Shown here piece after piece: positions 30,226 to 34,387 of a stretch of DNA of 64,000 nucleotides. The notes beneath the pieces are model-generated. The model saw only the letters and a list, made by a program, of their open reading frames with translations, was not told the origin of the DNA and made no database searches. This stretch comes from an uncultured Spirochaetaceae bacterium (GTDB taxonomy: Bacteria > Myxococcota_A > UBA9160 > UBA4427), in contig CAZMFM010000005.1 in NCBI GenBank assembly GCA_964565565.1, forward strand, positions 21,292 to 85,291, written 5' to 3'. The translations under genes and the position numbers were made by a program. Each line of letters begins with the position of its first letter. Position 1 is the first letter of the stretch.

Positions 30226-32258
30226 CTCGGCCCGGTCTCGGACAGTTCCTGTCGCAAGGATTGCGACCCCTCGCACTCCGCGTCGAAGCCACTCGGCTCC
30301 TTGAGCTCGAGGAGCAGCTCGTCGCGCGCGGTGTCGACGCAGCGAAGCCGGACGCCAGCCGGGTCGTGGAGTTGCTCGTTACCACCACGGAGAGCGCGAC
30401 CCAAGAACTGGCCTTGCTACGCCAGAGTTATGTCGACTTCGCGTCGAGCTATCAGAGCTCCGAGGGCGGAGCTGAATGCGATGAAATCATCCTGGAATTT
30501 GCGAAATGCCTGGGGTCCGAGGGTGTCGCGTTGCGCGAAGACCGGAAGGCGCTGCGGCGCTATTTCGACTACGACGCGGTGGTCGAGCGATTCAGTCGCC
30601 GCGAACAAATCGCGGAGCAGCGGATCGGCTTCCTGATCGAACGGGTCGGATCGATCGCCTCGGCAGTCATGCGAGGCGCGTTGCCGGTCGAGTCGTTGCC
30701 TCTCTTTCAGCGCTTTGAGATCGAATCCCTGGCTACGCCGCTGCTTGCGCATGTGGGTGACGAGCGCGTGCGAGTCGAGGCCTTCCGCTGTTTGTCCCGC
30801 TGCCTGACCACCCTTCCCGCCGGCCAGGAAATCGGGGCGGTCGCGGCGCAGCTCGTCCAGTTCGTCAATCGGGCTGCGTTGGATCCCGGCCAGAACATTT
30901 GGATCCAATCGGAAGCCCTCGCCCTCGTGCTCCATACATCGCCGTCGATCTTTGCCCGTACCGTCCGCAAGAGACTCTCAGATCCGCGCGAGGGCGATGA
31001 TCTCTTCGTGCGCCGCAGAGCCGTTCGCATGATTGCCTCACGACTTCGCGATCAGCCCGAGCTGAACGAATGCATCGAATTGATCGTCGCCGACCCGAGC
31101 CCCTACGTGCGACAGGAGCTCCCGGGATGCCTGGCCAGAAGCCTTCCTGAAAAATCCCTCGACGTGATCGGCTCGTTGGTACGCAACGATCCGGCCGGCC
31201 CGGTACGCGCTTCCGCTCTCCTGGCCCTGCCGCTCCTGGCCGAGGCGGGTGAGGAGATCATGTCCCTTCGTATCCTGCTCGAGGAAGTCTTCTCCTACGA
31301 ACGGGACGACTATGTCATTCGAGTCGGCCTGCGCGTGGCGGACGAACTCCAGAAGACCGTGCTTCTCGCCGGGGATCTCGAGCTTGCCGCGGGCTGGTAT
31401 CGCGCGCTCCGCCCTGCCCTCGAACGCCTCCACTGTCAGGCGAATTCCTTCGTCGTTCGGCGCGCGGCCGCGCGCACGCGCGAACGATTGTGGAGTCGTG
31501 CAGACGCGGACCGACGCGCCGTCCTCGAAGGCCTCGAAGCGATCCGAGACGCAACTCGGCCACATGATCGGACACGACGATCGTGCGAAAAGTTGAGGGC
31601 GGTCTCTCGAGAAACGCTCGGGCGCCTCATGGCCGTCGCGGCTGAACACGACTTCGGCCTCTTCGCGGAGACACGAAGCCGCCGATTCCGAATCACCCGC
31701 GGCCACCGCTTCGGCTTTCGCCTTTGGCGCCTATTGCACGAGTTGCGAAATCCCGCGACCGACAAACGACAGGCACATCGCCACATCATCGGTCGCGTCT
31801 TTCGCGGTGACCTGCACGCGCCGTCCGCGATCCTTGCCGAACTCTCCGAAACGACCGTTCCCGGCGAACCCCTCTACATCGAGGAAGAAGACGGTTGGCG
31901 ACCCTACCTACCACTCGTCGATGAGGTCATTTCGAGCCTCGATGAAGGATTCAAGGCCCGCACCCTCGAGATCTATTCAGCAGAGGGTGTCACGGAGGTC
32001 ATCTCGCCCGACGCACTCTTCGCGCGGCTGCGAGCCCGAATGCGACTGTGCCGGCGATTTCAACACTATGCGAGATTGCGAAATTGGCGTGTGGATCGCG
32101 GAGGACGGCCATCTTCCTACGTCGAAGCTTTGCGCGAACTGGGCATCGAGGTCCGCTATCGACCGCACGACGAGCAAGCGGGCAGTCCCGGTAGCGATCC
32201 GCACGCGGCCACCTCTTCGGACGAGTCAGTCCTGCGATTCTTCGAGGATGCGAAATGA
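30222..32258 (+). CDS. Operon gene F: cytoplasmic HEAT-repeat protein of unknown function
   Basis: 678 aa, TTG start inside a TTGA overlap with E. No TM or signal peptide. Repeated xxVRxxAxxxL helices (DERVRVEAFRCLSR, DLFVRRRAVRMIASRL, PSPYVRQELPGCLARSL, DPAGPVRASALLALPLL, DYVIRVGLRVADEL, SFVVRRAAARTRERL). Confidence 0.6.
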   Translation: MTRPGLGQFLSQGLRPLALRVEATRLLELEEQLVARGVDAAKPDASRVVELLVTTTESATQELALLRQSYVDFASSYQSSEGGAECDEIILEFAKCLGSEGVALREDRKALRRYFDYDAVVERFSRREQIAEQRIGFLIERVGSIASAVMRGALPVESLPLFQRFEIESLATPLLAHVGDERVRVEAFRCLSRCLTTLPAGQEIGAVAAQLVQFVNRAALDPGQNIWIQSEALALVLHTSPSIFARTVRKRLSDPREGDDLFVRRRAVRMIASRLRDQPELNECIELIVADPSPYVRQELPGCLARSLPEKSLDVIGSLVRNDPAGPVRASALLALPLLAEAGEEIMSLRILLEEVFSYERDDYVIRVGLRVADELQKTVLLAGDLELAAGWYRALRPALERLHCQANSFVVRRAAARTRERLWSRADADRRAVLEGLEAIRDATRPHDRTRRSCEKLRAVSRETLGRLMAVAAEHDFGLFAETRSRRFRITRGHRFGFRLWRLLHELRNPATDKRQAHRHIIGRVFRGDLHAPSAILAELSETTVPGEPLYIEEEDGWRPYLPLVDEVISSLDEGFKARTLEIYSAEGVTEVISPDALFARLRARMRLCRRFQHYARLRNWRVDRGGRPSSYVEALRELGIEVRYRPHDEQAGSPGSDPHAATSSDESVLRFFEDAK

Positions 32259-34387
32259 ACCTCGATTATCTCGACAGGGCCTACGGCTATTTCCATTCCG
32301 TCTACGGAAACACGATCTTCGAATTGGCCGTCTTCCTGGCCATCGCGTCCGCGGCCTTCCTCGGACGACATTTCCATTCGACACGAGCCATCGCTCGCGC
32401 TCGCGCGAAGATTCCCGTCATGATCGGCGGCTGGGGCACGCGCGGTAAATCTGGCACGGAGCGAATCAAGGCGGCGCTCTTCAACGCACTCGGATACTCC
32501 GTCTTCTCCAAGACCACGGGGACCGAAGCGATGTTCGTCGCCGGTCCGCGCTACGGCCCGTTGACTGAAATGTTCCTGTTCCGACCCTACGACAAAGCGA
32601 CCATCTGGGAACAGGGCGACGTCATCCAGATCGCCGCCGGACTTCGGGCGGACATCTTTCTTTGGGAATGCATGGCGCTGACCCCGGACTACGTCCAGGT
32701 ATTGCAACGCGACTGGATGAAGGACGATCTCGCAACGATCACCAATACCTACCCCGATCACGAAGACCTTCAGGGTCCCGCCGGAATCGACATTCCGGAA
32801 GTCATGACGCGCTTCGTCCCACAAGCCTCCGAACTCGTTACCACCGAAGAGAGCATGCTGCCGATTCTTCGCGAGGCCGCGAGGTCGGAGGGAACGACAC
32901 TGACCGAAGTGGGTTGGCTCGAAGCCGGCCTGCCCACGGAAGACGTTCTCGCGCGCTTCCCCTACGAAGAACATCCCTCGAATATCGCGCTGGTCCTTGA
33001 AATCGCGCGGCGCTACGGCATTCGCGGCGACTTCGCGTTGAAGGAAATGGCGGACCGCGTGGTGCCTGATCTCGGCGTGCTCAAGGTCTACGACCCAGCG
33101 CCGATCTTCACGCGCAGACTGCAATTCGTGAGCGGCCAGGCTGCCAATGAGCGCTTTGGGTTCCTCGCCAGCTGGCGTCGTACTGGCTTCGACAGTCACG
33201 ACCCCCGAGACGAGCCTGGCACATGGCTCGCCACCGTCGTCAATAATCGGGAAGACCGCGTCCCGAGGTCCAGGGTCTTTGCCGAAATTCTGGTTCGGGA
33301 TGCGATGGCAGATCGACACTTCCTGATCGGGACGAACCTGAACGGATTTCTTGCCTATCTCGAAGAGTCGTGGGAAATCTATGCGCGAGAGGTCACGCTC
33401 TGGCCCGGCGACGGGACGGACCCCGATGCACGGCTCGAAGAAGTCGTTCGTCGCTTTCGCGTTCCCTTGAACCGAGGGGAGCGAATCGATCGGGCCGCCG
33501 CGATGCTGAAGGGCATCGCGATCGACGTCGAGCGCACGAAACTCGAAGAAGCCATCGACGACGAATCACAGCTCGCGACGCTGCTCGAATTGGTCGACTC
33601 GGAAATCTCCGAGGACGTCATCAATCATATCGCCCAGCAACGACAACAACTGATCGCGCTCGACGCACTGCGCGTTCGCTTGTCGGGCGGGGGCGGCATT
33701 CCGGATCCCGAACTCGATGAGCAGTTGAGACGCATGCTCCACGACTGGTTCATGTCCAAAATCGTCGTTCTCTGGGATTCTCATTCGACGGGCGACGAAA
33801 CGATCGATCGTATTGCCCGGGCGCTGCCACCCGGCCTCACCACTCGGATCATGGGTTGCCAGAACATCAAGGGAACAGGGCTCGACTTCGCCTATCGATG
33901 GGTGGCCTGGGATCGTTGCGTAACGGCCTGCCATGATCTTGAAAGCGGCGATCCCAATCGAATGGAATCAGGCCTGCGATCCCTGGCTCAACTTCCGCGC
34001 TTCGGCTTGATCTGCCACGAGACACTGCGAGAGACCCTGGCGAGTATCCAATCAGACGACACCTCGACGCCGGCTCCGCTACGCAGTCGACTTCGCGAGA
34101 TCGAAGATCGATTGGACGCAGAAACCTGCTCCCAGAAGCCCGAACGACACTCCGACGAGCGGCGAAGCCCCTGGGTCGCCGCCGTTCTGCGACTGCTCGA
34201 AGGCCTGCTTGATGCCGGGGACGCGATCAAACGCAGGAAAAAGGCGGATCGCATCTACCGGGATCTCGTCGCAGAGCGCGTGTCGTCTCGCGCGGCCGTC
34301 GCCATGCTGCAAGCGTTGACGAAGAGACAAAAGGGTGGCTGGCTCGAGCAATCACTCAGCCGGAAGAACTTGAAGGATGGCGTCTGA
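32255..34387 (+). CDS. Operon gene G: PgsB/CapB-like ATP-dependent amide ligase (Mur-ligase fold) with insertion and long C-terminal extension
   Basis: 710 aa, ATGA overlap with F. N-terminal TM IFELAVFLAIASAAFLG. P-loop GGWGTRGKSGTERI, SKTTGTEAMFV, LWECMALTPDYVQVLQRDW, ITNTYPDHEDLQGP, VVNNREDRVPRS and MGCQNIKGTG track B. subtilis PgsB motifs as recalled (NGIRGKSTVTRL, GKTTGTDARMI, ECMAVNPDYQ, LEDHMDVMGP, NCRPDRVDRT, GVGNIHG). PgsB is about 390 aa. Confidence 0.8.
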   Translation: MNLDYLDRAYGYFHSVYGNTIFELAVFLAIASAAFLGRHFHSTRAIARARAKIPVMIGGWGTRGKSGTERIKAALFNALGYSVFSKTTGTEAMFVAGPRYGPLTEMFLFRPYDKATIWEQGDVIQIAAGLRADIFLWECMALTPDYVQVLQRDWMKDDLATITNTYPDHEDLQGPAGIDIPEVMTRFVPQASELVTTEESMLPILREAARSEGTTLTEVGWLEAGLPTEDVLARFPYEEHPSNIALVLEIARRYGIRGDFALKEMADRVVPDLGVLKVYDPAPIFTRRLQFVSGQAANERFGFLASWRRTGFDSHDPRDEPGTWLATVVNNREDRVPRSRVFAEILVRDAMADRHFLIGTNLNGFLAYLEESWEIYAREVTLWPGDGTDPDARLEEVVRRFRVPLNRGERIDRAAAMLKGIAIDVERTKLEEAIDDESQLATLLELVDSEISEDVINHIAQQRQQLIALDALRVRLSGGGGIPDPELDEQLRRMLHDWFMSKIVVLWDSHSTGDETIDRIARALPPGLTTRIMGCQNIKGTGLDFAYRWVAWDRCVTACHDLESGDPNRMESGLRSLAQLPRFGLICHETLRETLASIQSDDTSTPAPLRSRLREIEDRLDAETCSQKPERHSDERRSPWVAAVLRLLEGLLDAGDAIKRRKKADRIYRDLVAERVSSRAAVAMLQALTKRQKGGWLEQSLSRKNLKDGV

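Follow-up and report, generated by a model that had tools for sequence, protein, structure and literature searches.

The stretch of DNA analysed here (the window; 64,000 nucleotides of contig CAZMFM010000005.1 from the assembly GCA_964565565.1 of an uncultured Spirochaetaceae bacterium) carries a cluster of seven same-strand genes, A to G, in which neighbours overlap by 4 bp and D and E by 25 bp. Overlaps between all seven genes imply translational coupling of the whole cluster. The last gene, G, was originally predicted to encode a ligase of the PgsB/CapB kind with additional segments. It is a real gene: its open reading frame (ORF) is open for 710 codons, and a search of 5.8 billion proteins with its product returned more than 1,000 homologues, those listed being 44–81% identical to it and most of them aligning near full coverage. 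G is likely to be the catalytic subunit of a PgsB-type ATP-dependent amide ligase that belongs to a large, uncurated long-form branch of PgsB and operates with HEAT-repeat and CapC-type partners. The cluster as a whole is, as far as sequence comparison can tell, probably a poly-amino-acid synthase of diderm bacteria with a gamma-glutamyl product. To our knowledge, poly-gamma-glutamate (PGA) synthesis is known almost only from the Bacillus PgsBCA(E)/CapBCADE systems, and even there mechanism and structure are unsettled.

The only NCBIfam model to match G at E ≤ 0.01 is TIGR04012, the PgsB model (E 6.5e-58; residues 29–371 on profile positions 4–331 of 380), in agreement with the original prediction; the other listed match, to an archaeal histone (E 0.13), is noise. 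Models of the enzymes that might have competed for the assignment—MurC–F, FolC and cyanophycin synthetase—gave no match to G even at E ≤ 10. In a BLASTP comparison with CapB of Bacillus anthracis pXO2, G shows 28% identity over residues 21–343 (about 320 amino acids, aa) with the motifs in register, and an hhalign comparison of two profiles, one built from 50 long forms and the other from 18 canonical PgsB sequences, places residues 36–366 on PgsB 12–329 with a probability of 99.8. All six motifs listed beforehand occur in the translation and in PgsB order: GTRGKSGTERI at residues 61–71, KTTGTEA at 86–92, ECMALTPDY at 138–146, PDHEDLQGP at 167–175, NNREDRVPRS at 330–339 and GCQNIKGTG at 534–542. 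That they are positionally equivalent to those of CapB/PgsB is borne out by BLASTP, by hhalign and by a joint alignment of long forms and canonical PgsB. Like Bacillus PgsB/CapB (TIGR04012, ~393 aa), G has an N-terminal hydrophobic helix—also part of the original description—but no Mur-type N-terminal domain, the P-loop strand starting at residue 55, after the hydrophobic helix; and like PgsB/CapB it is encoded beside a CapC/PgsC-type membrane protein, here the product of gene B in the same cluster. An AlphaFold2 (AF2) model of G, built on the family alignment (mean predicted local distance difference test score, pLDDT, 83.8; predicted template-modelling score 0.79), gave 90 matches to the PDB at E ≤ 0.001, and each of the top 50 listed is a chain with the Mur-ligase fold, from FolC/FPGS, MurC/E/F, CphA1, pseudomurein ligases or the MurE-like subunits of plastid RNA polymerase. 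FolC/FPGS, CphA1 and MurC/E/F are the best of these (E 1e-7 to 1e-5). Sequence searches of the PDB with G and its family profile found nothing meaningful, and no PgsB structure was among the entries searched. With the MurC–F, FolC and CphA profiles unmatched and the motifs positionally equivalent, G is PgsB-like by sequence; its modelled structure has a Mur-ligase fold.

The catalytic motifs of PgsB—GxRGKS, KTTG, ECMA, DHxD, AAN(D/E) and NxRxDRxxR—are all present in G, ordered and invariant. In the joint alignment, which was made with the family-specific insertion removed, long forms and canonical PgsB have 57 invariant columns with the same residue in both. Among these are G61-x-R63-G64-K65-S66, K86-T87-T88-G89, E119-Q120, E138-C139-M140, N164, D168-H169-x-D171, G174-P175, A297-N298, N330-x-R332-x-D334-R335-x-x-R338 and the final GxxNIxG; within the first part of the C-terminal domain, the common invariants are G294, A297, N298, N330, R332, D334, R335 and R338. 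No part of G is better conserved across phyla than the central domain (Table 1; region identities are means of the identity to G across 50 family members). The common invariants, together with this high conservation, speak for an active ligase. Inside the model, pLDDT drops below 50 in a single segment, the HEDLQ loop (residues 169–173, window positions 32759–32773), which directly follows the catalytic Asp–His; the model thus suggests a mobile active-site loop.

What sets G apart from PgsB/CapB is its length, 710 aa as against 393–395 aa, or about 1.8-fold, which agrees with the roughly doubled size first noted. PgsB/CapB lacks both a helical insertion of ~120 aa in the C-terminal domain and a tail of 165 aa. 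The insertion had been described as helical and acidic, which holds, and as about 180 residues long, which does not: profile alignment and the AF2 model, whose helices at 390–501 helped to delimit it, confine it to about residues 378–497. NNREDRVPRS and GCQNIKGTG are separated by 194 residues in G and by 66 in CapB. Across the 50 family members the insertion is poorly conserved (22% identity), varies between 90 and 130 aa and carries a mean net charge of −6.7. Because of the insertion, local alignments of G with PgsB end near residue 366: the hidden Markov model match stops at profile position 331 of 380 and the hhalign local alignment at residue 366 itself. When only the C-terminal parts were compared by hhalign, residues 498–556 aligned with PgsB 336–390 (E 0.0035), so that RIMGCQNIKGTG falls on RVVYGVGNIHGAA. 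Likewise, GCQNIKGTG aligns with PgsB GVGNIHGAA once the insertion is set aside, and P526, G534, N537, I538 and G540 are invariant in both long forms and canonical PgsB in the insertion-removed joint alignment. A Smith–Waterman alignment of post-insertion G with the CapB C-terminus recovers the expected register with a non-significant score (25 against a shuffle mean of 27). It is thus the profile and invariant-column evidence that supports an equivalence of the last motif.

The C-terminal extension, described from the outset as ending in a basic stretch, comprises residues 546–710, and the last 70 aa of G carry a net charge of +8. Its first part is only 27% identical across the family; its basic end (residues 641–700) contains the near-invariant motifs FLDAGDAVKRRKKA..IYKDL and KRQKGGWL. 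The acidity of the insertion and the basicity of the tail end are family-wide tendencies (mean net charges −6.7 and +4.0, n = 50). A search of 1.84 billion representative proteins with the tail alone found 398 clusters, in which it always lies at the extreme C-terminus and occurs in this family only; the full-length tail-bearing proteins mostly measure 1,340–1,470 aa. A Pfam scan of the C-terminal half of G gave no match at E ≤ 10. Insertion and tail appear to be accessory, non-catalytic elements, and we infer that they form a helical platform contacting the HEAT and CapC modules, or else the anionic product or the membrane. More speculatively, the tail, being basic and conserved, could be a binding site for an anionic product, for acidic lipids or for a partner, and the arm, acidic and variable, has the look of a spacer or of a docking element. 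Docking to the HEAT protein or the CapC fusion and control of chain length, both suggested originally, would be possible roles of the two segments.

The lengths of the tail-bearing proteins are matched by the arrangement of G and the preceding gene, F, in other species. For this comparison, related loci were collected from a scan of one genome per species, and 81 were compared, the pXO2 reference (L001) being excluded. In 70 of the 81 (lying within L005–L082), the frame upstream of the P-loop stays open for ~740–800 codons, and HEAT module (~690 aa) and ligase form one ORF of ~1,340–1,530 aa. The window thus shows a split form, and the 710-aa G is the detached catalytic half of a HEAT-repeat/ligase protein of ~1,400 aa. 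F and G meet in an ATGA stop/start overlap, directly after a conserved RFF(PA) motif. The split is found in at least 10 close relatives of 710–717 aa and in other lineages, and it recurs independently in Myxococcales, Nitrosomonas, Erythrobacter-type loci and others. One such single ORF, of 1,334 aa in Alteripontixanthobacter muriae (L054), has sub-threshold HEAT matches in its N-terminal half (HEAT_2 26.8 bits; cutoff 27.7). The prevalence of the fusion speaks strongly for joint action of F and G as a unit, without singling out the insertion or the tail as the contact surface. In one locus (L050), insertion and tail are kept in G and no HEAT gene is recognisable in the 15.9 kb of the locus that were analysed. 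PDB sequence searches with F returned nothing meaningful.

Table 1. Genes of the cluster and regions of the gene G product, with positions in the window (res, residues).
Feature	Position	Strand	Basis
Gene A, CHASE2-like, 911 aa, first of cluster	17582..20317	+	PF05226, E 2.8e-7
Gene B, double CapC/PgsC-like membrane domain and soluble part of ~600 aa (two alpha/beta repeats), 959 aa	20314..23193	+	Pfam, NCBIfam, AF2 model
Gene C, 271 aa, N-terminal signal or anchor, no known domain	23190..24005	+	Pfam/NCBIfam scans; N-terminus analysis
Gene D, 299 aa, signal peptide, no known domain	24002..24901	+	Pfam/NCBIfam scans; N-terminus analysis
Gene E, 1782 aa, exported, signal-like N-terminus, optional component	24877..30225	+	N-terminus analysis; domain scans
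Gene F, HEAT-repeat protein, 678 aa	30222..32258	+	HEAT_2 match
Gene G, long-form PgsB-like ATP-dependent amide ligase, 710 aa, split form	32255..34387	+	ORF; TIGR04012; hhalign to PgsB; Mur-ligase fold
G res 1–52, conserved amphipathic helix (YFxSVYxNS) and single hydrophobic helix (res 18–36), then basic stretch	32255..32410	+	Kyte–Doolittle 1.74; AF2 helices 3–17, 21–52; family consensus
G res 53–280, central ATP-binding domain; GWGTRGKSG 58–66, KTTG 86–89, ECM 138–140, DHED 168–171	32411..33094	+	65% mean identity, no indels, n = 50; motifs invariant, common to PgsB
G res 281–377, C-terminal Mur-ligase domain, part one; GQAANE 294–299, NNREDRVPRS 330–339, strand FLIGTN 356–361	33095..33385	+	Aligned to PgsB up to res 366
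G res 378–497, family-specific helical insertion within C-terminal domain; six helices, net charge −10	33386..33745	+	AF2 helices 390–501, pLDDT ~90; no PgsB counterpart
G res 498–545, C-terminal domain, part two (strand, helix, strand RIMGCQNIKGTG), equivalent to PgsB C-terminus	33746..33889	+	hhalign of sub-alignments; invariant columns
G res 546–710, family-specific helical C-terminal tail, 165 aa, seven helices	33890..34384	+	AF2; tail search
G res 641–700, conserved basic end of tail (LDAGDAIKRRKKADRIY ... KRQKGGWL)	34175..34354	+	50% identity, mean net charge +4.0; near-invariant columns 649–697

The other genes of the cluster (Table 1) supply the surroundings of the HEAT–ligase. B matches PF14102 in two stretches (E 6.7e-40) and TIGR04011 below cutoff (E 1.3e-15); its homologues of ~1080 aa are widespread. 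The CapC-like repeats of B are four-helix units, and the soluble repeats share the consensus WGxY..VPxPLxE...AIAG..R..N.DGSAD. A Foldseek search of the PDB with the B model gave no significant match (best E 0.14); weak, non-significant likenesses of its soluble half to pyroglutamyl peptidase I, aminopeptidases and the gamma-D-Glu-Dap amidase MpaA are a hint only. A PDB search with the B family profile found nothing meaningful, and Pfam at E ≤ 10 gave no match to the soluble part of B, to C or to D. C homologues were detected in 14 related loci and adjoin B wherever B was also detected, while D lies upstream of E or F in 55 of the 81 loci. E, present in 58 loci and absent from Erythrobacter-type loci, matches nothing in Pfam, NCBIfam or the PDB, a Pfam search at E ≤ 10 giving only a non-significant TPR_21 hit (E 1.1). 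The match of A to CHASE2 is weak (residues 36–312), and its C-terminal 500 aa have no profile match; visual inspection suggests a likeness of its extreme C-terminus to a histidine-kinase ATPase domain, which no profile supports. Homologues of A adjoin G/B in L031, L038, L050 and L053. A known anti-phage system was considered and rejected, no PADLOC defence model matching any of the seven proteins. Nothing useful came from simple scans for promoters and terminators at the two cluster ends. The flanking genes (11845–17245 and 34533–39693) encode a DUF3604 protein, a cytochrome P450 and a TetR protein, a sulfotransferase, a DUF4156 lipoprotein, a beta-lactamase-fold protein, an MFS transporter and an APH-type kinase; of these, the immediate neighbours, sulfotransferase and DUF4156 lipoprotein, were looked for in the 81 related loci and found to adjoin the system in none.

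The architecture of G is the rule in a large family, whose members are carried by at least 480 species representatives from the Gamma-, Beta-, Alpha- and Zetaproteobacteria, Desulfobacterota, Planctomycetota, Verrucomicrobiota, Nitrospirae and Myxococcales, among them methanotrophs, sulfur-oxidising symbionts and nitrifiers. Among the carriers in culture are Methylovulum miyakonense HT12, Vreelandella massiliensis and V. rituensis, Desulfocicer vacuolatum DSM 3385, Altericroceibacterium xinjiangense, Aromatoleum/Azoarcus sp. CIB and several Erythrobacteraceae. The closest locus among the matches listed belongs to an uncultured Myxococcales metagenome-assembled genome, whose G is 81% identical and whose B–F are 60–75% identical. 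The order D-E-F-G or B-C-D-FG is conserved in about 80 loci from many phyla: D-E-F-G prevails in most, Erythrobacter-type loci without E read A-B-C-D-FG contiguously, and a few loci are permuted to G-A-B-C. Two loci have unrelated neighbours: in L002 (15906–17180) the system lies close to genes for a TIR/TPR protein and transposases, and in L050 (1072–3729) an ExeA-like AAA ATPase with a peptidoglycan-binding domain and a T2SS-B-like protein are encoded directly upstream of G. In databases the long forms listed are named "hypothetical protein" by NCBI, with one "HEAT repeat domain-containing protein"; of those labelled by JGI, most are called "PgsB/CapB". Under such automated names, "CapB" and "CapC" have been reported as enriched in non-diazotrophic Thiodiazotropha lucinid symbionts and filed under storage compounds (PMC11168628). 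Since Candidatus Thiodiazotropha loci (L030, L034 and L042) carry the long-form system, that annotation probably refers to it.

Set against known enzymes, the long forms differ from Bacillus PgsB/CapB in occurring in diderm phyla rather than in Bacillota, in being usually fused to a HEAT module and in lacking a PgsA/CapA, PgsE or CapD partner. FolC/folylpolyglutamate synthase, which adds gamma-linked glutamates, and MurC–F share with the G model a P-loop central domain and a Rossmann-like C-terminal domain (template-modelling score 0.4–0.5 on the target). G, in contrast, matches none of their profiles, has no N-terminal substrate-binding domain, is membrane-associated and contains extra helical segments. 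The M domain of CphA1 (fold match 7lg5, E 2.9e-7) is likewise a Mur-ligase-type domain within a larger multidomain polypeptide, and it serves non-ribosomal poly-amino-acid synthesis; CphA1 is, however, soluble, paired with an ATP-grasp domain and devoid of a CapC-type partner, a HEAT module and sequence-level similarity. A further parallel is offered by the cellulose (Bcs), poly-N-acetylglucosamine (PNAG; Pga) and alginate (Alg) systems, synthase-dependent envelope polymer secretion systems of Gram-negative bacteria in which a glycosyltransferase polymerises. By analogy from general knowledge, A–G would resemble them in that a single operon supplies a synthase at the cytoplasmic face, coupled to a channel-like protein of the inner membrane, together with exported proteins of the periplasm, large ones of the envelope and a regulator that resembles a sensor. 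They differ in that the polymerising enzyme of A–G is an amide ligase and that the exported proteins match no known TPR or beta-barrel exporters.

Several observations weigh against reading G as the catalytic subunit of a PgsB-type synthase. Its TIGR04012 score of 196.3 bits lies under the curated equivalog cutoff of 222.7 bits; two other long forms reach 170–186 bits, and B. anthracis CapB 592.8. A Pfam scan of G that included Mur_ligase_M (PF08245) gave no match even at E ≤ 10, whereas PF08245 is present in CapB and in all 120 listed canonical PgsB proteins (393–395 aa). No PgsA/CapA, CapD or CapE homologue lies in the window—tblastn of the pXO2 CapA, CapD and CapE against all 64,000 nucleotides gave nothing below E 0.2, and a Pfam scan of the cluster proteins no PGA_cap match—so the canonical synthase complex is not reproduced. 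In the fusions, a single strong hydrophobic helix separates two domains that are both expected to be cytoplasmic; the RFFPA segment upstream of this helix includes a clearly hydrophobic 15-aa window in only 5 of the 70 fusions, and a hairpin or re-entrant membrane arrangement is possible. Full-text literature searches found no study of a long-form or HEAT-linked system and no product shown in any carrier. Finally, 48 further columns are invariant within each family yet different between long forms and PgsB, and several of them flank catalytic motifs: W60/N36, P167/E140, E170/M143, Q173/M146, N331/C294, Q536/G370 and K539/H373. Given these differences, the substrate, acceptor or regulation of the long forms may differ from those of PgsB.

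The sub-equivalog score, the family-specific substitutions and the changed partners—PgsA, CapD and PgsE are missing, and there are a HEAT protein, a giant exported protein and a double CapC that bears two alpha/beta repeats—are also what would be expected if the same ligase chemistry led to another product, either a polyamide of another amino acid or of mixed composition, or amino acids added to a lipid-, glycan- or protein-linked acceptor. We regard this as rather unlikely: PgsB is the closest family by far, with the other Mur-ligase profiles undetected, a CapC/PgsC-type partner specific to PGA systems is retained, and the cluster gives no pointer to another substrate, with no racemase or amino-acid biosynthesis gene conserved nearby. 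The failure against Mur_ligase_M, the large non-catalytic helical additions, the HEAT scaffold partner and the low confidence of the loop at residues 169–173 could instead be taken as signs of a catalytically dead regulatory or scaffolding pseudo-ligase. This is very improbable in view of the P-loop Lys/Ser, the ECM Glu, the DH His, NxRxDR and the terminal GxxNIxG, all invariant and identical to PgsB, and of a central domain that is the best conserved part of the protein. Even less credible is an ordinary PgsB whose extra length stems from an annotation or assembly artefact (frameshift, read-through or chimeric ORF). A frameshifted fusion could be suspected where F overlaps G by 4 bp and is fused to it elsewhere, but insertion and tail are found within and after the ligase domain in 50 of 50 aligned homologues from many phyla, with conserved motifs. 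Moreover, the tail clusters are independent of one another, the AF2 model is confident through both segments, and the same split recurs in relatives.

A PgsB-type ligase with HEAT and CapC partners accordingly remains the preferred reading of G, and a gamma-glutamyl polyamide the most likely product of the cluster, because PgsB and PgsC are its only recognisable relatives. By comparison with Mur-type ligases and PgsBCA, G would activate a carboxylate as an acyl-phosphate at the expense of ATP and join an amino acid to it, the amide bond being formed at the cytoplasmic face of the membrane; its most likely reaction would be the extension of a gamma-glutamyl-type polyamide. The predicted anatomy of G comprises a membrane-associated N-terminal helix, a cytoplasmic P-loop domain, a C-terminal domain split by a fast-evolving acidic arm, and the tail. 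G would work as one unit with F, to which it is translationally coupled in the window. B would take the place of PgsC, its CapC-like domains providing the membrane part of the active complex or a conduit. Beyond the inner membrane, in the periplasm or outer envelope, the product would be handled by C and D, joined in the loci that have it by the giant E, and A may be a sensor or regulator of the system. Extending the analogy with the polysaccharide systems, HEAT–ligase, B, C, D and the optional E might constitute a hitherto unrecognised envelope-spanning machine that makes a poly-amino-acid (gamma-polyglutamate or another polyamide) and secretes it across both membranes of the diderm cell, with the acidic arm and basic tail coupling or gating catalysis and export—a tentative proposal that we hold to be more doubtful than probable. 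If true, this machine would do for peptide polymers what the synthase-dependent systems do for cellulose, PNAG and alginate.

The enzyme family to which G belongs is known; what is new is an uncurated, widespread architecture with a different surrounding system. Hundreds of Gram-negative-type species carry this branch of PgsB, which has a different and far larger partner set and does without PgsA. The finding also corrects automated annotation, which names long forms "PgsB/CapB" or "hypothetical protein" and has no model for them. Should the system make a polyamide that is extracellular or periplasmic, bacteria of environmental importance would possess a polymer of the envelope, of biofilms or for storage that has been overlooked; the long forms would then be a new source of biopolymer synthases, and their natural fusion would show which proteins work with the ligase.

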